From the NCBI RefSeq assembly GCF_963931295.1, contig NZ_OZ007001.1, positions 1,551,137 through 1,615,136 on the forward strand: DNA of 64,000 nucleotides. The letters run 5' to 3'. Made by a program: the position numbers and the translations under genes. Positions within the stretch are counted from its first letter, which is position 1. Each line of letters opens with the position of its first letter. Below, in pieces: positions 2-51,826 of the stretch. The DNA is from an uncultured Mailhella sp. (GTDB taxonomy: Bacteria; Desulfobacterota; Desulfovibrionia; Desulfovibrionales; Desulfovibrionaceae). The notes beneath the pieces were generated by a model. That model was not told the origin of the DNA and searched no databases. It saw only the letters and a program-made list of their open reading frames with translations.

Positions 2-1414
2 GAATTCGGCGGAAGCGTGGAGAACCGCTGCCGGTATCCGCTCATGATCATGAAGCGCATCCGTCAGGAAGTGGGCAACGATCTGGTCATCGAAGTGCGC
101 ATGAACGGCTCCGACATGATGGAAGGCGGCATCACCCCGGAGGACGCCGCAGAACAGGCCCTCATCCTTTCCGAAGAAGCGGATATGCTGCACATGACCT
201 GCGGCACCCGCCTCGACGCCTCCAGCCGTCCGAAGATGCATCCCACGCACTTCCTTGAAAGAGCGCACAACGCCAGAGCCAGCGAACTTGCCAAGAAGGC
301 CGGCGTCAAGATTCCCGTGGGCGTGGTGGGCAGCATTCACGATCCCGATCTCGCCGAAAAGCTGCTCGAAGAAGGCAAGGCCGACTACGTGCTCACGGCG
401 CGGCAGGCCCTTACCGACAGCGACTTCGTCAACAAAATCCGTGAAGGACGCCTTGAGGACATCCGCCCCTGCCTGCGCTGCGACTTCTGCCTCGACGGCT
501 CCAAGCGCGGCTCCCTCACCACGGAAGTGAACATCCGCAAGGACTCCACCTACGACAGACAATGCGCCGTCAATCCGCTCTGGTATCAGGGCATCACCAA
601 GAAGCACCTCATTCCCGCGCCTTCCAGAAAGCGCAAGGTCGTCGTTGTCGGCGGCGGCATTGCCGGCATGCAGGCAGCCTTCACCGCGGCCGAACGCGGC
701 CACGACGTCACGCTCTACGAAAAGAGCGACAAGCTCGGCGGTCAGGCGCTGTTCTCCGACGGCATGTGGTTCAAGCAGGAAATGAAGGCCTTCCGCGAAT
801 ACCTCATACGTCAGGTTCACAAGTCCGGCGTCCATGTTCTGATGAACGTCGAAGCCACCCCGAAACTGATTTCCGAAATCGACCCCGACGTGGCCATCAT
901 CGCCGTGGGCGCGGAACAGGTGGTTCCTCCCATTCCCGGCATCGACGGCAAAAACGTGTTCATGTCCTGGGACGTGTTCGGACACTACGAGCTGCTCGGC
1001 AAGCGCGTGGCCATCGTGGGCGGCGGTCTTGTGGGCTGCGAACTTTCCATTGACCTCGCAGGCCAGGGGCACGACGTCACCGTGGTGGAACTCGGACACT
1101 ATCTCGCCGCTACGGCGCAGATCAGCGAACGCATGCACATCATGGAATTCATGAAGAAGAACAACGTCGCCTCTCTGGTGGACGCCACGGTAGAGTGCAT
1201 CGAACCTGACCACCTCAACGTGCGCACGGCCGAAGGCCCGCAGACCATTGAAGCCGACAGCTTCATCATCTGCACGGGCACCCGCTCTCTGACCGACCTG
1301 CGTGATTCCTTCCGCGACACGGCCTTTGACGTCATCAACATAGGCGACTGCGTACGCGCCTCCGACATCGTCAATGCCGTCCGCACCGGCTGGGACGCCG
1401 GCGCAACCGTCTGA
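2..1414 (+). CDS. NADH:flavin oxidoreductase (old yellow enzyme barrel + Fe-S + FAD/NAD domain; FadH/BaiCD-like architecture), 5'-truncated by window edge
   Basis: Frame is open from base 2 (EFGGSVENR, OYE motif). CLRCDFC...C Fe-S motif; two Rossmann motifs GGGIAG and GGGLVG. Confidence 0.85.
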   Translation, partial: EFGGSVENRCRYPLMIMKRIRQEVGNDLVIEVRMNGSDMMEGGITPEDAAEQALILSEEADMLHMTCGTRLDASSRPKMHPTHFLERAHNARASELAKKAGVKIPVGVVGSIHDPDLAEKLLEEGKADYVLTARQALTDSDFVNKIREGRLEDIRPCLRCDFCLDGSKRGSLTTEVNIRKDSTYDRQCAVNPLWYQGITKKHLIPAPSRKRKVVVVGGGIAGMQAAFTAAERGHDVTLYEKSDKLGGQALFSDGMWFKQEMKAFREYLIRQVHKSGVHVLMNVEATPKLISEIDPDVAIIAVGAEQVVPPIPGIDGKNVFMSWDVFGHYELLGKRVAIVGGGLVGCELSIDLAGQGHDVTVVELGHYLAATAQISERMHIMEFMKKNNVASLVDATVECIEPDHLNVRTAEGPQTIEADSFIICTGTRSLTDLRDSFRDTAFDVINIGDCVRASDIVNAVRTGWDAGATV

Positions 1415-1508
1415 CATCAACGGGATGCCGCAAGCGCCCGCCGCTTACGGCATCCCGTCCGAAAAGCTCCCCCCGCACACCGCCTTCCCCTCTGCAAGGA
1501 GTGCCTTT

Positions 1509-2987
1509 ATGTCCACCCTCCGCCTATCCAATCTGACGCCTACCAAATGGTTGTGTTTTGCCATCGTTCTGTTCTGCATGTTCGGCGCTCCCGAGCTGGT
1601 GTCCGGCACCGGAGCCATGACCGATCTCGGAGCAAGGATCATATGCATCTACGTGGGCATGGCCTTCGGCTGGCTGACGCTCGACCTTGCCTGGCCCAGC
1701 GTTCTGGGCATTCTCGCCGTGGGTCTCTCGGGCTACTCCAGCGTGAACAACGTGCTCAAGATGTGCTTCGGCAACAGCAGCGCCCTGCTCGTGTTCTTCG
1801 TGTTCATCATTACGGGCGTCATCGACAAGGCGGGCGTCTCCCGCTGGATAGCCCTTCACATCTGCAGTCTTCCCATCGGCCGCGGACGGCCCTGGGTCAT
1901 GACCTTCTGCATTCTCGCCGCCATCATGACTCTCACCCTCTTCATCGGCGTGTCCCCGGGCGTGCTGGTCGTGTGGGCCATTTTCTACAGCATCTGCGAA
2001 GTGTACGGCATCAAGCCCGGCGAACACTGGGCAACCATGGTCATGGTGGCCATTCCGTTCTTCGGCAGCGTCACCGCCTCCATCTTCCCCTTCAAGTCGG
2101 TTCCCGTTGTGGCCCTCGGCGCGTATTCCCAGCTCAGCGGCGGCGACGTCATCGACTTCCCCCAGTATTTTGCCTGGTCCCTCATCGTGGACTCCATGAT
2201 CGTCGTGCTTACGCTGGCCTTCATGCGCTTCGTGCTCAGGCCGGACGTGAGCAAGATCTATAACGCCAAGGTGTACTTCAATCCCGAAGAGCTGCGCCTC
2301 ACCACCTATCAGAAGATCGTGCTTCTCTGGTTCTTCCTGTTCATCGTCATGATGATGGTCCCCTCCCTGCTACCCTCGCACTGGGAACTTACCAAGTTCT
2401 TCAAGAAGCTCGGCAACACCGGTTGCGCCGCCCTCATGTGCGCCATCTTCTTCGCCTTCGATTTCGTGCAGAACGAATCCATGCGTAAGACCATCGCCTC
2501 CAGCGTGCGCTACGACGCCCTGCTCGTGAACTTCTCCGCCATCGGCATTGCCGGCGTCATGTCCAACGACGCCAGCGGCATCTGCCAGTGGTTCGTGGAT
2601 CTGGTCACGCCGCTGACCTCCGGCCAGAGCACCGTGGTTATTCTCATGCTTCTGGTGGCCATGGCCAGCCTGATGACTCAGTTCCTGAACAACCTCGGCA
2701 GCACGGCCATCTACATTCCCATAGCCTACAGCGTGGCCGTGGCGGCAAACATCAATCCGGCGCTCGTGTGCATGTGCTGCATCGCCGCCCTGAACATCGG
2801 CATCCTTACGCCTTCCGGCAGCAACCCCGCGGCCATGCTCTACTCCAACGCCGTGTGGGCTCCGGGACTGCGGCCTTACGCCTATGCCGCATGCTTCCTG
2901 GCCATCAACTTCGCCGTGCTCATGCTCGTAGGCGTGCCCATTGCCGAATTCTTCTTCCCCAGCATCCTTCCCAATTCCGTGCTGTAA
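1509..2987 (+). CDS. SLC13/DASS-like (ion transporter superfamily) permease
   Basis: About 12 hydrophobic segments; NNLGS and TPSGSNP motifs typical of DASS hairpins; AAGGAG RBS at about 1496-1501 before ATG 1509. Confidence 0.7.
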   Translation: MSTLRLSNLTPTKWLCFAIVLFCMFGAPELVSGTGAMTDLGARIICIYVGMAFGWLTLDLAWPSVLGILAVGLSGYSSVNNVLKMCFGNSSALLVFFVFIITGVIDKAGVSRWIALHICSLPIGRGRPWVMTFCILAAIMTLTLFIGVSPGVLVVWAIFYSICEVYGIKPGEHWATMVMVAIPFFGSVTASIFPFKSVPVVALGAYSQLSGGDVIDFPQYFAWSLIVDSMIVVLTLAFMRFVLRPDVSKIYNAKVYFNPEELRLTTYQKIVLLWFFLFIVMMMVPSLLPSHWELTKFFKKLGNTGCAALMCAIFFAFDFVQNESMRKTIASSVRYDALLVNFSAIGIAGVMSNDASGICQWFVDLVTPLTSGQSTVVILMLLVAMASLMTQFLNNLGSTAIYIPIAYSVAVAANINPALVCMCCIAALNIGILTPSGSNPAAMLYSNAVWAPGLRPYAYAACFLAINFAVLMLVGVPIAEFFFPSILPNSVL

Positions 2988-3008
2988 CGGTCTTTTTCCC
3001 CTGCCGTG

Positions 3009-3044
3009 AAAGTCGGTGGCGTTCCTCCAGCGCCGCCGACTTTT
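3009..3044 (+). terminator. Intrinsic terminator after DASS permease
   Basis: AAAGTCGGTGGCG / CGCCGCCGACTTT stem followed by T-tract. Confidence 0.75.
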
Positions 3045-3321
3045 CACATTCTGCCTGGCTTTCTCCCGGAGCGCTCCGCGCTTCCGCCGAAGGGAAACAC
3101 GGACATCGCCCGAAATTCGGAACATCACCCATCGCATGCCTTCGCGTGCCCCGTTTTTCTGAGTCGGGCGGCCCTACTGGCAACAGTGCTGAAATGCACG
3201 CCGTTGCAAGCCCGCGCTTCTGAGACTCCGGGCCCATGGCCCTGTCACGCCGATCCCGCGCAAGCGCCGCCCCCGCGAGCAAAGCCCTGCGTCACTCCCT
3301 CTGTTCCCCCAAAAACGCCGC

Positions 3322-3358
3322 AAAAAAAGGGCGGCAGCCTGAGCCGTCGCCCCTTTTT
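3322..3358 (-). terminator. Intrinsic terminator after argC
   Basis: A7-GGGCGGC ... GTCGCCCC-T5 hairpin with A/T tails on both sides. Confidence 0.65.
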
Positions 3359-3374
3359 CAGCAATGTTTCCGCG

Positions 3375-4421
3375 CTACGGAACCAGCGGCGCGAAGTTCA
3401 GTCCCGTGTTCACGGGAAGGCCGAACATGAGGTTCGCGTTGGCCACGGCCTGACCGGACGCGCCGCGGCAGAGGTTGTCGATGGCCGAGGTAATGATGAG
3501 TCGTCCGGTGCGCTCGTCCACGGTCACGGCGATGTCGCAGAACATGGTGCCGCGCACGTTGCGCGTTTCCGGCAGCTTGCCTGCGGGCATCACGCGCACC
3601 CAGGGGCTGTTCTTCCAGAAGTCCTCATAGAGGGCCTGCACGTCGGCCTGCGAAAGCGGCGTGGACAGCTTCGTGTAGATGGTGGCCAGAATGCCGCGGC
3701 TGATGGGCAGAAGATGCGGATTGAACGACACCGTCATGGACGTGCCCGCCGCCACGGAGAGTTCCTGTTCGATTTCCGGAGTATGACGATGTTTGCCGCC
3801 GATGTTGTAGGGGCGGAAGGAATCGGCCACTTCGCAGTACAGGGAACTGACCACGGCCTTGCGGCCTGCGCCGGTGGTGCCGGACTTGGCGTCGATGATG
3901 ATGTCGTCGGTGCGGACGAGGCCGTTTTTCAGGGCCGCGTACAGGCCGAGTATGGACGCCGTGGGATAGCAGCCGGGATTGGCCACCAGCCTGGCTTCGC
4001 GCACCTTGTCGCCGTAGATTTCCGGCAGACCGTACACCGCGCGGGCCAGATATTCCTTGCGGGTGTGCGGCTTGTACCAGGCTTCATACACGTCTGCGTC
4101 GCGCAGGCGAAAGTCCGCGGACAGATCCACGACCTTCACGCCTGCGTCGTAGAGATCCGCGCCTATTTCCATGGCTACGCCGTGGGGCACGGCGAGAAAG
4201 ACCACGTCGCAGTTTTCGGCGAGCGCCTTCACGTCCGGCTCCATGAGCACGACGTCTCCGCCGGGAAGCCCCTGAAGGAAGGGATACACGGCGTCGAGCC
4301 GCTTGCCCGCGTCCTGTCTGGACGTGGCGGCGGTCAGCCTGATGGAAGGATGGGAGGCCAGAATACGGGACAGTTCCATCCCGGTGTACCCGGTGACGCC
4401 GACCAGTCCGGCACGCAGCAT
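3375..4421 (-). CDS. argC: N-acetyl-gamma-glutamyl-phosphate reductase
   Basis: GVTGYTG Rossmann motif, ANPGCYPT catalytic motif, DNLCRGASGQAV. Confidence 0.97.
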   Translation of the reverse strand: MLRAGLVGVTGYTGMELSRILASHPSIRLTAATSRQDAGKRLDAVYPFLQGLPGGDVVLMEPDVKALAENCDVVFLAVPHGVAMEIGADLYDAGVKVVDLSADFRLRDADVYEAWYKPHTRKEYLARAVYGLPEIYGDKVREARLVANPGCYPTASILGLYAALKNGLVRTDDIIIDAKSGTTGAGRKAVVSSLYCEVADSFRPYNIGGKHRHTPEIEQELSVAAGTSMTVSFNPHLLPISRGILATIYTKLSTPLSQADVQALYEDFWKNSPWVRVMPAGKLPETRNVRGTMFCDIAVTVDERTGRLIITSAIDNLCRGASGQAVANANLMFGLPVNTGLNFAPLVP

Positions 4422-47069: not shown

Positions 47070-49358
47070 ATGATTCGCTTCATCAAAAAACGCGATTCTC
47101 GAGTGGTTCCCTTTGACATCGCCAAGATAGATGAGGCGATCTTCCGAGCGGCGAAGGCTCAGGGCGGCACCGATCGCGCCATGTCCCGCAACCTCGCCGA
47201 TCAGGTGCTCGACATGCTCGAGGCCGAAGGCGGCGACACGCCCGACGTCGAACACGTGCAGGATCTCGTGGAAAAGGTGCTCATCGAAGCCGGTCATGCC
47301 CGCACCGCCAAGGCGTATATTCTCTACCGCAACGAACGCACCCGCGTGCGCGAAATGAAGACCAGACTCATGAACACGCTGAAGGATCTCTCCTTCACCG
47401 ACGCCAAGGAGCTGGACCTCAAACGCGAAAACGCCAACATCGACGGCGATACGCCCATGGGCACCATGCTGCGCTACGGCAGCGAGGCTGCCAAGGCCTT
47501 CTACAAGAACTATCTGCTCTCGCCCGAATACAGCCGCGCGCACGAGGAAGGCGACATTCACATTCACGACCTCGACTTCCTCTCCCTCACCACGACCTGC
47601 TGCCAGATCGACATCAAGAAGCTGTTCAACGGCGGTTTCAACACCGGTCACGGCTTCCTGCGCGAACCCAACAGCATTCAGTGCGCGAGCGCCCTCGCCT
47701 GCATCGCCATCCAGTCCAACCAGAACGATCAGCACGGCGGCCAGAGCATTCCGAACTTTGAATACGGTCTCGCTCCCGGCGTGGCCCGCAGCTTCATCAA
47801 GAACATCGACCTCGCCCTCGACATGCGCGACGCGCCCGAAGACTTCCGCAACGAAGTGAAGACCGCGCTGCGTTCCCGCGCCTTCCCCACGGGCGAATAC
47901 GCCTCCTTCCGGTCCATCCTCAACGAGGAAGGCCTCGACTTCGTGAAGCAGCAGCTCATGACCCGCCTTTCCGAAAAGGAAGCCGCCCACGTCATCGACA
48001 AGGCCCTCGCCAAGACCGACAAGGACACCTATCAGGCCATGGAAGGACTGATCCACAACCTGAACACCATGCACAGCCGCGCCGGCGCTCAGGTTCCCTT
48101 CAGCTCCATCAACTACGGCACCGACACCACGCCCGAAGGCCGCATGGTCATCAAGAACACCCTGCTGGCTGAAGACGCGGGTCTCGGCAACGGCGAAACG
48201 CCCATTTTCCCCATCCACATCTTCAAGGTGCGCGACGGCTACAGCTTCAACCCCGGCGATCCCAACTACGACCTGTTCAAGCTCGCCTGCCGCGTGTCCG
48301 CCAAGCGCCTGTTCCCCAACTTCTCCTTCATGGACGCGCCCTTCAACGCCCCCTATCTTAAGGGCGACGATCCCAACCATGAAGTCGCCTACATGGGCTG
48401 CCGCACCCGCGTCATGGCCAACCGCTACGACCCCGAACGCGAAACCACCTTCGGCCGCGGCAACCTCTCGTTCACGTCCATCAACCTGCCCCGCCTCGGC
48501 CTCAAGCACCGCGGCGACGTGGAAGGATTCTTCGAGGAACTCAACGAAAAGATCGATCTCGTCTTCGGTCAGCTTCTTGAGCGCCTCGAAATTCAGAGTC
48601 ACAAGCGCTGCCGCAACTATCCCTTCCTCATGGGACAGGGCATCTGGCTGGATTCCGAAAGCCTGGCCCCCGGCGACGAAGTGGGCGAAGTGCTCAAGCA
48701 CGGCACCCTGACCACCGGCTTCATCGGCCTCGCCGAATGCCTGAAGGCGCTCATCGGCGTGCATCACGGCGAATCCGAAGAAGCGCAGGAACTGGGCCTG
48801 CGCATCGTGCGCACCCTGCGCGAGCGCTCCGACGCCAAGGGCGAGGAAACCGGACTGAACTTCACCGTGATCGCCACCCCCGCCGAAGGCCTCGCCGGCC
48901 GCTTCGTCAAGTACGACCGCAAGCTCTTCGGCAGCATTCCCGGCATCACCGACAGGGACTACTACACCAACTCCTTCCACATTCCGGTGTACTTCCCCAT
49001 CAACGCGTTCAACAAGATACGTCTTGAAGCGCCGTACCACGCCCTGACCAACGGCGGCCACATCAGCTATGTGGAAGTGGACGGCGATCCGCTCAACAAC
49101 CTTGAGGCCTTTGAAGACATCGTCAAGGCCATGAAGGAAATGGGCATCGGCTACGGTTCCATCAACCATCCCGTCGACCGCGATCCCGTATGCGGCTATA
49201 CTGGAATCATCGGCGACGTCTGCCCCCGCTGCGGCAGACACGACGGCGAAGGCATTCCTCTTTCCGTTCTGAAACAGATCAAGGGCTATATCCGCGACAG
49301 CCGCACCAGCGACGAACGCAGCGAAGCCCATGACAAAATTCCGAATATCAAACTCTAA
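47070..49358 (+). CDS. nrdD: Anaerobic (class III) ribonucleoside-triphosphate reductase large subunit, with degenerate C-terminal glycyl-radical motif
   Basis: N-terminal ATP cone (KKRDSRVVPFD), IHIHDLD, TTTCCQID, QNDQHGGQ, YMGCRTR, ATPAEGL, YYTNSFH, CG...CPRCG; ends QIKGY... instead of RITGY. Confidence 0.93.
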   Translation: MIRFIKKRDSRVVPFDIAKIDEAIFRAAKAQGGTDRAMSRNLADQVLDMLEAEGGDTPDVEHVQDLVEKVLIEAGHARTAKAYILYRNERTRVREMKTRLMNTLKDLSFTDAKELDLKRENANIDGDTPMGTMLRYGSEAAKAFYKNYLLSPEYSRAHEEGDIHIHDLDFLSLTTTCCQIDIKKLFNGGFNTGHGFLREPNSIQCASALACIAIQSNQNDQHGGQSIPNFEYGLAPGVARSFIKNIDLALDMRDAPEDFRNEVKTALRSRAFPTGEYASFRSILNEEGLDFVKQQLMTRLSEKEAAHVIDKALAKTDKDTYQAMEGLIHNLNTMHSRAGAQVPFSSINYGTDTTPEGRMVIKNTLLAEDAGLGNGETPIFPIHIFKVRDGYSFNPGDPNYDLFKLACRVSAKRLFPNFSFMDAPFNAPYLKGDDPNHEVAYMGCRTRVMANRYDPERETTFGRGNLSFTSINLPRLGLKHRGDVEGFFEELNEKIDLVFGQLLERLEIQSHKRCRNYPFLMGQGIWLDSESLAPGDEVGEVLKHGTLTTGFIGLAECLKALIGVHHGESEEAQELGLRIVRTLRERSDAKGEETGLNFTVIATPAEGLAGRFVKYDRKLFGSIPGITDRDYYTNSFHIPVYFPINAFNKIRLEAPYHALTNGGHISYVEVDGDPLNNLEAFEDIVKAMKEMGIGYGSINHPVDRDPVCGYTGIIGDVCPRCGRHDGEGIPLSVLKQIKGYIRDSRTSDERSEAHDKIPNIKL

Positions 49359-49369
49359 GGAGCGTTCTC

Positions 49370-49555
49370 ATGATCCATTGCAAGTCCGATGTGGCTGCCA
49401 CCACCGATCAGATTCTCGTCGGTTCCAATGTCAAGTTCGAGCGTATCCGCCGCATCACCGGTTACCTCGTAGGTACTCTCGACCGCTTCAACGACGGCAA
49501 GGCCGCGGAAGAGCGTGATCGCGTCAAGCACTGCAGCATGGACAATTGGAAGTAA
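49370..49555 (+). CDS. Stand-alone NrdD glycyl-radical domain peptide (61 aa)
   Basis: FERIRRITGYLVG...AEERDRVKH; own RBS (TAAGGAG overlapping the nrdD stop codon). Confidence 0.88.
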   Translation: MIHCKSDVAATTDQILVGSNVKFERIRRITGYLVGTLDRFNDGKAAEERDRVKHCSMDNWK

Positions 49556-49581: not shown

Positions 49582-49613
49582 GGGACGGGCCTTTTGGGGC
49601 CCGTCCCTTTTTT
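49582..49613 (+). terminator. Terminator after nrdD + peptide
   Basis: GGGACGGGCC / GGCCCGTCCC-T6. Confidence 0.85.
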
Positions 49614-50397
49614 CATGCCCAAAGCGTGAGGAGCTCTCGCCGCCTTTCCAAAAAAGCGCCCGGGGCTGAGCCCTGCCGCGGCGCAGGAGCCTCGCTCCGG
49701 CGCGGATTCCCCGGTTCCTCAGGATTTCCCCGGAGCTCCACGGATCTCCACGGGGCCGCACGCGCCGCCTGAGGCGCAGAATGATCCGGCCCGACTTCCT
49801 GATGAAAAAAGCGAATACTGTGCCGCAAACGGGCCCGTGAGCGCGGAAAACAGCTATACCGGCCCCCCCGGCAAAACACACGGACAGCCCTGTTCGCGGA
49901 AAATCCGCCCGCCGCTCCGCCAGACGCCCCGTCTTCTCCCCCTCGTCCGACATTTCAAGCACAGCGGGCTGAATTTTTCGTCACACGGGGGCACTGTCCG
50001 TCGCATGCGCAAAACACCTCTCTCCGTCCGACAGCCCAGGCACGGCAGGCTGCGCTTTTTTGCGCCGCGCCTCTCTCTCCGTCTGCCACTCCAGAGCAGC
50101 GGACTGCACCTTCCGTCATGTTCCGCCAGAGGTCTGCTCATCTGCCGAAGTCCCTCCCGTATCGCCGGCTCCGACAGTTGAGGCTCCGCCCCTCTCCGCG
50201 CTGCCCCGAGCCCGCCTGTGCGTCCATTCCGCGTCCCAGAGGCCTGATGCCTTCGCAGGCAAAGCCGTCAAAAACACCTTTGCGCCGAACAAAAGCGTCC
50301 GCCCCGCGGACAAAAGCCCATGAAAAAACGCGGAGAAAAGCCGCCCACAAAAGGGAGACTCTTCCCCGCGCCATGCGTCAAAAGGCGTCAAAAATGC

Positions 50398-50928
50398 CTA
50401 GCGCTCGATAGGCCCGTTCAGCGCGTCCAGCACGGGCGTCCAGCCGGCGTCTCTGGACGCGGCCAGATTCAGAATGCGCTGATTGCGCGAGCCGCGGAAA
50501 CGCAGCTCCAGCGATTTTTCCTCCTCAATGAACGGTCCGTCCACAAGAAGATCCAGAAGGGAAAGCAATTCGCGACAGCCGGGCTTCGGCAGAAGCTGCT
50601 CGAAGGTGTAGCCGCTGAACGCCATGAGATGATAGCCGCGCCGCTTCAGTTCGGCGGCCAGAGGCAGCAGCGCCTGCGCCTGCTCAAAGGGCTCGCCGCC
50701 GCTGAAGGTGATGCCGTGAACCAGGGGATCGCCCTGAATGCGGGCCAGAACGTCCTCAGCCGAAACCAGCGTGCCTCCGTTGAAGTCCCAGGTCTGGGGA
50801 TTCTGGCAGCCTTTGCAGTGCGTGCGGCAGCCCTGAAGAAAAAGCACGAAGCGGAGCCCCGGTCCATCGACGATGGACTCCTCGATGACGCCAGCCACGC
50901 GCAGCATGATGTCCTTCAGAGCGTCCAT
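50398..50928 (-). CDS. nrdG: Anaerobic ribonucleotide reductase activating protein
   Basis: SIVDGPGLRFVLFLQGCRTHCKGCQN, ITFSGGEPF, LVDGPF, FRGSRNQR. Confidence 0.95.
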   Translation of the reverse strand: MDALKDIMLRVAGVIEESIVDGPGLRFVLFLQGCRTHCKGCQNPQTWDFNGGTLVSAEDVLARIQGDPLVHGITFSGGEPFEQAQALLPLAAELKRRGYHLMAFSGYTFEQLLPKPGCRELLSLLDLLVDGPFIEEEKSLELRFRGSRNQRILNLAASRDAGWTPVLDALNGPIER

Positions 50929-50929
50929 G

Positions 50930-51826
50930 TTATTCCTTGTTCGGTTCGGGAATGACGCTTTCTTCCGTTGCCGGAGCCACCTTGCCTTCGGTGTCGTCCA
51001 CGCGGCCCTGCATCCAGAAGATCATGTCCACGTCGTCGCCTTCCTTGGGCTCGTAGCCCTTGTAGCAGATGCGCTCGGGCGCGTAGATGATGGCATAGAC
51101 CGGCTTTTCGGGATTGCCGAATCCCACGCCGAAACGATAAATCTTCATCTGCGACTTTTCCGGCCCGAACATGAAGCTGTCCACATCAAAGATTCTGGCG
51201 CGGCACTGATACTCGCAGCAGTGATCGGTGATGTCGATGATCGTTTTTCCCTTGAGCGGTATCTTGAGCGCGGGCACGTCGAGACGGGTCTTGTCGGGAT
51301 GCTGCTTCATCCATTCCAGTGCGTGCTTTTCATAGGCGGGGCCCTGGGTCACGGTCAGTTCGTCGAGAAGGGCGCGGCGAATGCCGTAGCACAGGCCGGA
51401 AAGGAGAAAGTTGAAGCTCTTGTCCTTCACATCTCCGGCTCCGTCGCGGAAAAACAGCGGAGCGTAAAACCAGAACGGCGGAAAATCGTCGGTTCCGGCA
51501 AGAATTTCGCCGGCGTGCTCGCCCTTCCAGGGATAGACGTCCCTGACGGTGAGCGTGTTGGAGAAGCCTTCCATGAGAGGAGCCACGGCCACGGCGGAGA
51601 GCTTGCCGTCCGGCTTGCCCGCCATGAGCACCGACGAGCGCAGAAGCGACTCGCTCGGCCAGGCCATGAGCATACGCTCCACCTGTTCGTCCTTCATGCC
51701 CCACACGGGGCGGCTGCCGCCGAGTTCCAGAGTGGTGGCCATCACGCCGACAACCTGCCTGGCATCAACTCCGAGGACAAACCACTTGTCCCCCATGCTT
51801 TCAATATGCTGCATATGACTTTCCAT
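50930..51826 (-). CDS. Hypothetical protein, 1 bp upstream of nrdG
   Basis: 298-aa ORF with typical GC3 bias; no motif recognised. Confidence 0.7.
   Translation of the reverse strand: MESHMQHIESMGDKWFVLGVDARQVVGVMATTLELGGSRPVWGMKDEQVERMLMAWPSESLLRSSVLMAGKPDGKLSAVAVAPLMEGFSNTLTVRDVYPWKGEHAGEILAGTDDFPPFWFYAPLFFRDGAGDVKDKSFNFLLSGLCYGIRRALLDELTVTQGPAYEKHALEWMKQHPDKTRLDVPALKIPLKGKTIIDITDHCCEYQCRARIFDVDSFMFGPEKSQMKIYRFGVGFGNPEKPVYAIIYAPERICYKGYEPKEGDDVDMIFWMQGRVDDTEGKVAPATEESVIPEPNKE

Follow-up and report, generated by a model that had tools for sequence, protein, structure and literature searches.

A class III ribonucleotide reductase in a gut anaerobe that may carry its glycyl radical on a separate, exchangeable small subunit

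Introduction

Can a class III ribonucleotide reductase (RNR) carry its glycyl radical on a protein other than its catalytic chain? This question is raised by a locus in a 64,000-nucleotide stretch of DNA from an uncultured Mailhella sp. (the window), where a 61-aa open reading frame (ORF) follows directly on nrdD. Glycyl radical enzymes are all destroyed by oxygen at the radical glycine, where the chain is cleaved, and to our knowledge no repair is known other than the spare part GrcA/YfiD, which serves pyruvate formate-lyase (PFL). A June 2026 review (PMC13450708) gives formate lyases as the sole enzymes with known spare parts and considers it undetermined whether other glycyl radical enzymes have them. 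We found no publication on a split, two-subunit, or spare-part NrdD, with the restriction that subscription journals were not covered. The locus makes the spare-part question directly testable for the anaerobic RNR, in an organism predicted to have no other deoxyribonucleotide source.

The large subunit and its activase

NrdD is a full-length match to NF005497 (1069.5 bits, cut-off 764, model positions 1–743 of 746) and to Pfam PF13597 (NRDD; E 4e-188), and its features are collected in Table 1. The ATP-cone aligns with that of the Prevotella copri (P. copri) NrdD 8P23, as does the MGCRTRV loop with Cys444, which is invariant in 68 relatives. Cys416 was identified as the radical initiator in the P. 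copri NrdD paper, and Cys444 is predicted from the alignment to take the radical from a glycyl loop. In the zinc ribbon, C708, C718, P719, R720, and C721 are invariant in the aligned relatives (A1), and Asp705 occupies the position of the first Cys of the zinc site of other NrdDs, a feature found throughout the clade, single-chain members included. The chain thus comprises an ATP-cone, a catalytic barrel with Cys444, a zinc ribbon, and a diverged cis copy of the glycyl radical domain (GRD). The canonical motif R-I-T-G-Y-L-V-G-T..DR[FW]N is absent from NrdD and is found on the separate 61-aa ORF.

Table 1. Coordinates of the features of the nrdD locus within the window
Feature	Position	Strand	Basis
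nrdD, class III ribonucleotide reductase large subunit, 762 aa	47070..49358	+	NF005497, Pfam NRDD
ATP-cone, allosteric activity domain, NrdD residues 4–91	47079..47342	+	PF03477 E 1.2e-22
Cys444 codon (MGCRTRV), predicted thiyl-radical cysteine	48399..48401	+	alignment to P. copri NrdD
Zinc-ribbon segment VC708GYTGIIGDVC718PRC721	49191..49232	+	aligned to 8P23 Zn site
"Pseudo-GRD" tail, diverged cis glycyl radical domain, residues 724–762, HDGEGIPLSVLKQIKGYIRDSRTSDERSEAHDKIPNIKL	49239..49355	+	hhalign
Shine-Dalgarno AAGGAG for the small ORF	49357..49362	+	sequence; 7 nt before ATG
Small subunit, stand-alone canonical NrdD GRD, 61 aa	49370..49555	+	NF005497, 8P23 match
Intrinsic terminator, closes the bicistronic nrdD-small-subunit operon	49582..49613	+	sequence
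nrdG, radical-SAM activase, 176 aa	50398..50928	-	TIGR02491
Conserved ORF, 298 aa, function unknown, directly upstream of nrdG	50930..51826	-	

Both nrdD and nrdG are single-copy genes, and no PF02867 match indicative of a class I or II RNR was obtained in the 97.5%-complete, single-contig genome. Judged by this gene content, the nrdD enzyme is the sole source of deoxyribonucleotides in this gut anaerobe. NrdG (TIGR02491, 133.4 bits, cut-off 126.1) is the only NrdG-type activase encoded; the remaining activase-like matches lie in frames of 314–351 aa, four of which are located 0.1–1.7 kb from the GRD ends of genes for long glycyl radical enzymes, and all PF01228 matches of the genome fall in frames of 835–930 aa. 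The stop of the 298-aa ORF is 1 nt from the nrdG start, and a 294-aa counterpart adjoins nrdG in related contigs. Searches of Pfam, NCBIfam, PHROG, and the PDB returned no match for it, and it is uncertain whether it is part of the RNR system. Between 46400 and 52000, no Rfam family was found, including the B12 riboswitch. The terminator behind the small ORF consists of an 11-bp stem with 9 G-C pairs, followed by TTTTTT.

A canonical glycyl radical domain in a gene of its own

The small ORF starts 11 bases after nrdD and translates to MIHCKSDVAATTDQILVGSNVKFERIRRITGYLVGTLDRFNDGKAAEERDRVKHCSMDNWK. Its residues 17–55 match positions 706–744 of NF005497 (E 1.7e-12), the same end of the model that is matched by NrdD, and PF13597 is its sole Pfam match, with no match to PF01228. 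The alignment to residues 707–740 of 8P23 is gapless and covers the radical loop and the C-terminal helix (RITGYLVGT.DR[FW]N). In P. copri NrdD, where the glycyl radical has been observed, roles have been assigned to Gly711, Tyr712, and Arg719. A reading made from the sequence alone (the sequence-only reading) had proposed a peptide with an intact radical motif, and this is borne out, as Gly31 (the predicted radical Gly, codon 49460–49462), Tyr32, and Arg39 are kept and the small protein thus retains every residue assigned a role in the P. copri enzyme. Moreover, Arg28 is invariant in 45 small proteins, and the core of the small protein has a dN/dS of 0.014 at a dS of 0.67. Relatives of the small ORF are also short, and the best 150 of 1971 clusters (50% identity) all comprise proteins of 46–124 aa.

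A trivial explanation would be that one gene has been broken by a sequencing or assembly error, or that the two ORFs are joined by programmed frameshifting or readthrough. They are only 11 nt apart, and in a few relatives both lie in one frame with a stop codon between them. However, this junction recurs in 27 species-level genomes and hundreds of independent assemblies; 394 indexed blocks of public assemblies contain the 61-aa protein unchanged, and three contigs among them, which stem from different samples, have the same order of nrdD (762 aa) and ORF (61 aa). An assembly artefact at the junction is rejected on these grounds. The ribosome binding site previously noted to overlap the nrdD stop codon is indeed present, with AAGGAG overlapping TAA (49356–49358); among the 27 loci of the genus, 23 retain the junction TAAGGAG and 25 retain AAGGAG. 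Spacers in these loci are mostly 10–18 nt long, with extremes of -1 and 27 nt, and each of the three frame offsets is represented in front of a conserved Shine-Dalgarno sequence and ATG, pointing to independent initiation rather than recoding, which upholds the earlier statement that this is not a simple frameshift. Furthermore, fusion of the two ORFs would yield two tandem GRD-like modules, an arrangement seen in no single-chain relative. We therefore regard an artefact or recoding as scarcely credible.

The tail of NrdD is a diverged but conserved second copy

The C-terminal end of NrdD reads ...CPRCGRHDGEGIPLSVLKQIKGYIRDSRTSDERSEAHDKIPNIKL up to its stop codon, and the GRD-like tail contains …GEGIPLSVLKQIKGY…, with Gly739 encoded at 49284–49286. 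The gapless 16-residue alignment between tail and peptide that had been claimed holds for GEGIPLSVLKQIKGYI versus GSNVKFERIRRITGYL. A comparison of profiles for the tail (n = 25) and the small protein (n = 45) with hhalign gave a probability of 91.7% (E 7.7e-7, 34 columns) with a single 3-residue gap after GY, a score indicating that the likeness is beyond chance. On the strength of these profiles, the homology between tail and small protein extends over the entire GRD, beginning at GEG and reaching the C-terminal D-K/R-x-x-H/N. The distance from the last Cys of the zinc ribbon to the tail Gly is 18 residues, exactly as in unsplit relatives, and this equal spacing and the homology over the whole GRD agree with the duplication inferred earlier.

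Among the residues with a role in the P. copri enzyme, the tail keeps only Gly and Tyr, and it has neither VGT nor the Arg of DRFN. Compared to 8P23, NrdD has five extra residues behind the zinc site and lacks three residues behind Gly-Tyr; this deletion falls in the tail motif KQIKGYIRDSR, in which the flap-binding Arg is not aligned. The reported replacement of the conserved Arg by Gln was only partly confirmed: Gln is found at position -3 of the Gly, but it is specific to the source genome, and relatives have R, K, H, N, S, T, or A, in some of them giving R-[IL]-K-G-Y. By all appearances in the alignments, with a variable -3 position, the deletion after GY, and the unaligned flap-binding Arg, the tail has lost the canonical constraints. 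To call it degenerate, as the sequence-only reading did, is nonetheless misleading, since it is under purifying selection (dN/dS 0.086, i.e. ~0.09) and represents an old, widespread module, which is conserved in 27 of 27 split loci of the genus and also occurs in NrdDs of Oscillospiraceae/Clostridiales.

These features bear on the main rival to a two-piece enzyme, namely that the small proteins are pure spare parts comparable to GrcA. The KGY tail would then be the working site, with NrdG installing the radical on Gly739, and small proteins would come into use only once oxygen has cleaved the tail, to replace the lost loop. Consistent with this, Gly739-Tyr740 is invariant in the genus, the loop is under strong purifying selection, the zinc-ribbon spacing is identical to that of single-chain NrdDs, and Arg is present at -3 in some relatives. 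Given the 18-residue spacing that it shares with single-chain NrdDs, the tail may remain able to reach into the barrel and to be activated. On the other hand, position -3 and the stretch behind GY are both free to depart from the canonical motif.

As a counterpoint to the two-piece reading, the tail segment IPLSVLKQIKGY is as constrained (dN/dS 0.046) as the core of the enzyme (0.044). Structure prediction was uninformative for the tail. AlphaFold2 with 68 tail-type relatives modelled the 762-aa NrdD with a mean pLDDT of 82.9 and a good core, and the tail at a pLDDT of 42–61; in a control with the single-chain NrdD of Ruminococcus flavefaciens (shallow alignment, 23 sequences), the canonical GRD was placed equally poorly (pLDDT <50), so the low tail values say nothing either way.

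Five small genes in the genome

The genome encodes five small GRD genes for its one nrdD and one nrdG. All five share an identical core, and the motif H[CM].M[DE].W[KR] is common to the C-termini of the chromosomal and prophage copies of the genus. Paralogue 2, at genome positions 1224757–1224942, is located between genes for desulfoferrodoxin/rubredoxin (Dfx/Rd) and genes for rubredoxin, a flavodiiron protein (FDP), and cytochrome bd (CydAB), and this Dfx-Rd-[GRD]-Rd-FDP-CydAB context recurs at about 19 of 21 loci across the genus. The oxygen link of paralogue 2 consists of this genomic context only. Paralogues 3–5 are found in prophage or mobile DNA, following genes for tail-fibre assembly or endolysin.

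With four additional copies elsewhere in the genome, the small piece resembles an exchangeable radical-bearing module, of which PFL offers the only demonstrated case so far. The earlier inference of a replaceable subunit had been drawn from a single small gene; with five, in oxygen-defence operon and prophage contexts, it is much stronger and is supported as far as computation can show. The copy inside an oxygen-defence operon would equally suit a pure spare part.

Multiple copies per genome could also be expected if the small proteins were not catalytic at all, acting instead as regulators or decoys that titrate NrdG, as sacrificial radical or oxygen sinks, or persisting as selfish or neutral fragments spread by phages. 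There is no evidence that the small protein binds to NrdD, and most viral copies are orphans distant from any nrdD. Against such a role stand the dN/dS of the core and the fact that exactly the residues contacting the barrel and the flap are kept.

Distribution of split and single-chain enzymes

The split pattern comprises a large subunit ending in CP.CGR..GEG[VI].hE.h followed by a gene for 50–70 aa with the core G.G[VI].FERIRRITGYLVGT.DRFN..K.AEE.DRVKH, and the window meets it with CPRCGRHDGEGIPLSVL… in NrdD, followed by the 61-aa ORF. A survey of how often the split and the tail occur together elsewhere had been proposed; the arrangement proves widespread, and lower bounds for it are 593 loci in species genomes and 548 viral contigs. 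Among the best 80 of these viral contigs, 74 carry the small gene without nrdD within 3 kb. The PHROGs contain no family for the small protein, which matches only the end of full-length NrdD families.

The small gene lies directly downstream of nrdD in all 27 loci of the genus and in the tail-type loci examined elsewhere. In an unbiased sample of species genomes, retrieved via the small protein rather than via the tail, CP.CGR..GEG[VI].hE.h is shared by 36 split large subunits from other species, yet only seven have Gly at the radical position and only four Gly-Tyr. One large subunit without this Gly (…VLKAIRKRITKDNRSEEE…) is followed by a canonical small gene of 69 aa and then by nrdG. Most of these large subunits have no Gly where the radical would sit, so that in such enzymes it has to be borne in trans by the small protein.

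This distribution argues against both rivals. Non-catalytic small proteins would leave the split enzymes without Gly with no radical site at all, even though most genomes of the genus have no RNR besides NrdD (PF02867 is absent from 27 of the 33 other genomes). Small genes are also restricted to genomes with an NrdD of this type: two genomes of the genus (G026 and G033) have neither nrdD nor any small gene and encode a PF02867 RNR, and small genes are likewise missing from other genera of the Desulfovibrionaceae, whose NrdD is different. We consequently consider a non-catalytic role improbable. For pure spare parts, the existence of genomes with an intact single-chain NrdD and an orphan small GRD protein (R. 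flavefaciens ATCC 19208 and a Christensenella MAG) is a point in favour. Conversely, closely related split enzymes without the Gly still keep the small gene, and its co-transcription and tight coupling to nrdD at every locus better fit a stoichiometric subunit. In our assessment, pure spare parts are rather unlikely.

In a tree of the NrdD core, split and single-chain forms are interleaved, with 11 changes, at least five of which are forced by well-supported branches. In single-chain relatives, the canonical GRD follows directly after the zinc ribbon and there is no tail; together with the interleaving, this suggests that the tail and the small protein together replace a single cis domain. An unsplit allele within the genus (G001:C385) resembles a natural re-fusion at first sight but is not relied on. 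Its 3' 300 nt differ in origin, with 80% identity vs. 94% upstream, its only source is a MAG contig that breaks off 190 nt downstream of the unsplit nrdD, and it may be a recombinant or an assembly chimera. The interleaving rests on the wider tree.

A proposed two-piece enzyme with an exchangeable radical subunit

The reading that we favour, with only moderate confidence, is a two-piece class III RNR whose radical resides on an exchangeable, NrdG-activated small subunit, with the tail of NrdD serving as a docking element or placeholder. Anatomy, homology, selection, copy number, genomic contexts, and distribution are observed, whereas activation by NrdG, docking, exchange, and a non-radical role of the tail are inferred in the absence of biochemical or expression evidence. 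In this enzyme, NrdG and S-adenosylmethionine would remove a hydrogen atom from Gly31 while the small protein is free or only loosely bound. The loop FERIRRITGYLVGT, with the radical on its Gly, would then be placed in the barrel beside Cys444, like the cis domain of a single-chain NrdD, and Tyr32 and Arg39 would contact the substrate and flap network described for P. copri NrdD. The NrdD tail would no longer be the main radical site and may be retained as a docking strand or site placeholder. With the radical Gly on an exchangeable 7-kDa protein, the 86-kDa enzyme would not have to be remade after cleavage by oxygen, and the four paralogues could supply fresh modules, one from the oxygen-defence operon and three from prophage or mobile DNA, acting during oxygen defence or when phages demand dNTPs.

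A more explicit "cartridge" version can only be offered tentatively, and we regard it as possible but doubtful. Here, the KGY tail would plug the barrel as long as no activated module is bound, and NrdG would charge free 7-kDa modules in solution; a charged module would displace the tail and be replaced after cleavage, for which the stress-operon copy would be kept, and host-matched copies brought by temperate phages would keep dNTP synthesis running. As a further counterpoint to the two-piece reading, one barrel site cannot hold the tethered cis loop and the trans peptide together, and how the site is shared remains unexplained.

If the two-piece reading is correct, many gut and rumen anaerobes assemble their RNR from two proteins, which would explain how strict anaerobes replicate through oxygen pulses, and the small GRD gene would be a new and very common phage auxiliary gene. 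Annotations could also be corrected, as the small genes currently either lack a name or are annotated as "anaerobic ribonucleoside-triphosphate reductase", and the large genes appear complete.

Comparison with known systems

Like the single-chain NrdDs of P. copri (8P23), phage T4 (1H7A), and E. coli, the large subunit belongs to the NF005497 family and has an ATP-cone, barrel, Cys loop, and zinc ribbon; it matches 8P23 with an E-value of 1e-182, and nrdG is located nearby, as in single-chain systems. Asn465 (GRGNLSF) occupies the position of the third Cys of thioredoxin-type NrdDs, which is the formate-type signature of PcNrdD. Unlike in these enzymes, the canonical radical loop resides on a separate polypeptide and the enzyme's own chain ends in a diverged copy.

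An RNR chain split over two adjacent genes is also known from the class II NrdJa/NrdJb of Pseudomonas aeruginosa, whose larger part bears an additional C-terminal element with a presumed role in binding. The NrdJ products must likewise associate, but the enzyme depends on adenosylcobalamin and its split-off part is an IscU-like/zinc-finger C-terminal domain instead of the radical-bearing element. We know of no extra paralogues or phage copies of NrdJa/NrdJb.

The closest parallel to the proposed function is GrcA/YfiD, which restores full-length inactive PFL in vivo; PFL retains a seemingly redundant strand that is required for YfiD binding. Like GrcA, the small protein is essentially one glycyl radical domain with an intact radical Gly motif, presumably activated by the enzyme's own activase, and both have phage-borne copies; a link to oxygen stress like that of GrcA may exist for the small protein, judged from genomic context only. 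In contrast to GrcA, it is homologous to NrdD (PF13597) and falls outside the PFL-type Gly_radical family (PF01228/IPR011140), has ~60 aa without a long disordered N-terminal half (GrcA has 127 aa), and is encoded in one of its copies by a gene translationally linked to that of the enzyme. Finally, as the enzyme of most relatives lacks a radical Gly of its own, the small protein would, unlike GrcA, be a subunit and more than a repair part.

A separate gene for the radical domain

The large class III RNR subunit NrdD ends in CPRCGRHDGEGIPLSVLKQIKGYIRDSRTSDERSEAHDKIPNIKL, the C-terminal part being a diverged copy of the glycyl-radical domain (GRD; hereafter the tail, KGY type, Gly739). A small ORF encoding a stand-alone GRD (MIHCKSDVAATTDQILVGSNVKFERIRRITGYLVGTLDRFNDGKAAEERDRVKHCSMDNWK, Gly31) follows and matches NF005497 positions 706-744 (E 1.7e-12), the same model stretch covered by NrdD's own end. 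Re-checking the sequence confirmed the coordinates, the codons and the 16-residue gapless alignment of NrdD and peptide from the sequence-only reading.

Features of the locus and small GRD gene copies of the genome (window numbering unless marked genome)
Feature	Position	Strand	Remarks
nrdD, 762 aa	47070-49358	+	NF005497 end-to-end, 1069.5 bits vs. cut-off 764; ATP-cone present
nrdD stop TAA	49356-49358	+	overlapped by AAGGAG
Small ORF, 61 codons (copy 1)	49370-49555	+	ATG 7 bases past AAGGAG; directly 3' of nrdD
Hairpin, then T-run	49582-49613	+	11-bp G+C-rich stem, 3' of small ORF
G+C-rich stretch, ~780 nt	49614-50397		separates small-gene terminator from nrdG end
nrdG	50398-50928	- (convergent)	TIGR02491, above cut-off
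Conserved 298-aa ORF	50930-51826	-	ends 1 nt before nrdG start
Copy 2	genome 1224757-1224942		desulfoferrodoxin and rubredoxin on one side; second rubredoxin, flavodiiron protein and cytochrome bd oxidase on the other
Copies 3 and 4, 53 aa each	genome ~2.777 Mb and 5.4 kb		follow baseplate genes, integrase and tail-fibre-assembly-like gene in near-identical prophage ends
Copy 5	genome ~262.6 kb		after GH108 endolysin-type gene, adjoining IS200-type transposase

An assembly artefact was rejected: an index of public assemblies has the exact 61-aa protein in 394 blocks, and three contigs compared, each from a different sample, all have the nrdD(762)-ORF(61) order. Across 27 species-level genomes of the genus, TAAGGAG is kept at 23 and AAGGAG at 25 of the junctions and the ATG almost everywhere, while the spacers range from -1 to 27 nt and include all three frame offsets. 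This pattern fits independent initiation and rules out a conserved frameshift or readthrough, bearing out the earlier view of a peptide with its own RBS.

Between the small-gene terminator and the 3' end of nrdG, no ORF is convincing and Rfam gave no match; at the equivalent place in related contigs, gene callers predict hypothetical ORFs (157-184 aa) that differ from one another. The 298-aa ORF, with a 294-aa gene at the equivalent position in related contigs, has no match in Pfam, NCBIfam, PHROG, or PDB. Its stop lies so close to the nrdG start that it is probably co-translated with the activase, and it could be an unknown NrdG partner.

The tail is a diverged but conserved paralogue

A profile of 25 tails aligned by hhalign to a profile of 45 small proteins (probability 91.7%, E 7.7e-7) from GEG to the C-terminal D-K-x-P-N / D-R-V-K-H, with a single 3-residue gap after Gly-Tyr. 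Over 19 distinct sequences (dS ~0.62), dN/dS was 0.044 for the NrdD core, 0.086 for the whole tail (0.046 for its segment IPLSVLKQIKGY), 0.064 for the whole small ORF, and 0.014 for the small ORF core (residues 20-55). By these comparisons the tail is a genuine paralogue of the radical domain and is conserved, not decaying; to call it degenerate is misleading.

The residue before the tail Gly is Lys instead of the canonical Thr, position -3 is variable (Q, R, K, H, N, S, T, A) where the small proteins have an invariant Arg, and VGT and the DRFN arginine are absent. In the solved single-chain NrdD of P. copri (PDB 8P23), the radical resides on Gly711, Tyr712 forms a bridge to both substrate and NxN flap, and Arg719 is a flap-binding residue (PMC11226230). 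The small protein aligns without gaps over this stretch and keeps all three residues, whereas the tail keeps only Gly and Tyr. Within the genus the tail Gly-Tyr is invariant, and its Gly lies 18 residues past the final Cys of the zinc ribbon, the spacing also seen in single-chain relatives. These two features keep alive the main alternative, which we consider unlikely, that in the KGY-tail lineage the radical still resides on the tail, with the small proteins serving merely as spare parts.

RNR gene content of the genome and genus

The genome (single contig, 3.17 Mb, 97.5% complete) encodes one NrdD and one NrdG-type activase, and a search for class I/II RNR large subunits yielded no PF02867 match (control positive in 12 of 14 genomes). 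It contains five stand-alone NrdD-type radical domains sharing the core FERIRRITGYLVG..[DE]RFN..K.AEE.DRVKH. Small genes (1-6 each) occur in 31 of the 33 other genomes of the genus; the remaining two also lack nrdD and have a PF02867 RNR instead. Since 27 of these 33 genomes have no PF02867 RNR, a two-piece enzyme would be the sole dNTP source in most species of the genus and must function.

Copy 2 lies in an oxygen-defence operon, and other genomes of the genus repeat this context at about 19 of 21 loci. The two rubredoxin genes flanking copy 2 (genome 1223983-1225124) are identical over their first ~50 residues (MKKYICNVCGYEYDPAKGD… / MEKYICNVCGYEYDPAKGD…), and it looks as if copy 2 was inserted together with a local rubredoxin duplication. 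Chromosomal and prophage small proteins of the genus (copies 1-4; viral loci L155-L157 and L163) share the motif H[CM].M[DE].W[KR] after DRVKH (e.g. HCSMDNWK, HCNMENWR, HMSMEPWK), which is missing from Firmicutes small proteins and may be a host-specific docking element. The genome also encodes five other long glycyl radical enzymes (835-930-aa frames), four with activase-like genes (314-351 aa) within 0.1-1.7 kb; none of the five has a PFL-type stand-alone GrcA.

Wider distribution

A HMMER search of 1.84 billion representatives yielded 1971 clusters (50% identity, E <=1e-3); the best 150 are all 46-124 aa long, with unrelated N- and C-terminal extensions flanking a near-invariant core. Scanning one genome per prokaryotic species gave at least 593 loci, from Desulfovibrionaceae, Succinivibrionaceae, many Clostridia and Bacilli, Muribaculaceae, Eggerthellaceae, and others. 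Among the best 80, 26 are single-chain NrdDs that lack a tail and have the canonical domain immediately after the zinc ribbon, and 54 are small ORFs. The sequence-only reading had proposed surveying how often the split with a tail occurs: about 36 of these 80 loci have the small ORF directly 3' of a large subunit. The motif CP.CGR..GEG[VI].hE.h is common to all of these large subunits; beyond it their tails fall into several types (long KGY, as here, long without Gly-Tyr, and several short kinds). In these 36, which were not selected by tail, Gly occupies the radical position in 7 and Gly-Tyr occurs in 4. Behind one tail-type NrdD that lacks the Gly (…VLKAIRKRITKDNRSEEE…) come a canonical 69-aa small gene and nrdG. 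Where the large subunit lacks this Gly, the radical is only possible on the small protein.

Split and single-chain enzymes interleave in the NrdD core tree (11 changes, at least 5 forced by well-supported branches), and the NrdD studied here falls in a KGY-tail clade, from within which Gly-less and short-tail forms branch. Orphan small proteins accompany an intact single-chain NrdD in R. flavefaciens ATCC 19208 and a Christensenella MAG. Some orphan GRD proteins (L112, L113, L132, and P0239; 78-113 aa) from genomes with single-chain NrdD have a distinct N-terminal domain, which ends in …DGD[FY]VD[IL].Y.[FW]… and abuts FERIRRITGY. By sequence, they represent a second architecture in which NrdD radical domains stand alone.

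In IMG/VR, at least 548 viral contigs carry the motif, and in 74 of the best 80 the small gene stands alone, without an nrdD less than 3 kb away. In Eggerthella phage EL753P1 (OP172808.1 6964-7180), nrdD contains an intein and its product ends without the Gly loop; the small gene is frameshifted in the record precisely at ...GFERIRRI-stop / (M)TTGYLTGSADRWNDAKKAELRDRVKHGK, its second half unannotated, which is due either to an error in sequencing or to genuine disruption of the gene. One genus contig (L049, G001:C385) has an unsplit nrdD (1224-3521, 765 aa) in the same rimP-nusA synteny, with a core 96% identical to a split relative. Its last ~300 nt, encoding a canonical GRD (…MDRWNDAKTAEEKDRVKHGI), match the local small gene at only 80% identity, and the gene stops 190 nt short of the contig end. 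Either natural recombination or chimeric assembly produced this allele.

A proposed two-piece class III RNR and its known counterparts

The most economical reading, towards which we lean with some reserve, is a two-piece class III RNR; it rests on comparative genomics alone, without transcript or protein data, and AlphaFold2 was uninformative. NrdG would charge the radical-bearing loop on a separate small subunit, the tail would be retained for another purpose, and the copies in the oxygen-defence operon and prophages would serve as replacement modules. That the small protein is an autonomous NrdD-type glycyl radical cofactor, as both this and the spare-part reading imply, seems quite likely.

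No description of a split or spare-part NrdD was found in full-text literature searches. New for this locus are the statistical demonstration of the tail as a conserved paralogue, the census of Gly at the radical position across large subunits, the finding that small-gene paralogues number five, and the status of NrdD as the genome's sole RNR. The only split enzyme described in RNR family surveys is of class II. According to a June 2026 review (PMC13450708), spare-part proteins are known for no glycyl radical enzymes but the formate lyases, and whether others have any is undetermined; a 2021 YfiD paper stated the same. Binding of YfiD, the spare-part radical domain of PFL, needs a seemingly redundant retained strand of PFL, and by analogy we propose that the tail may dock the small subunit or hold its place.
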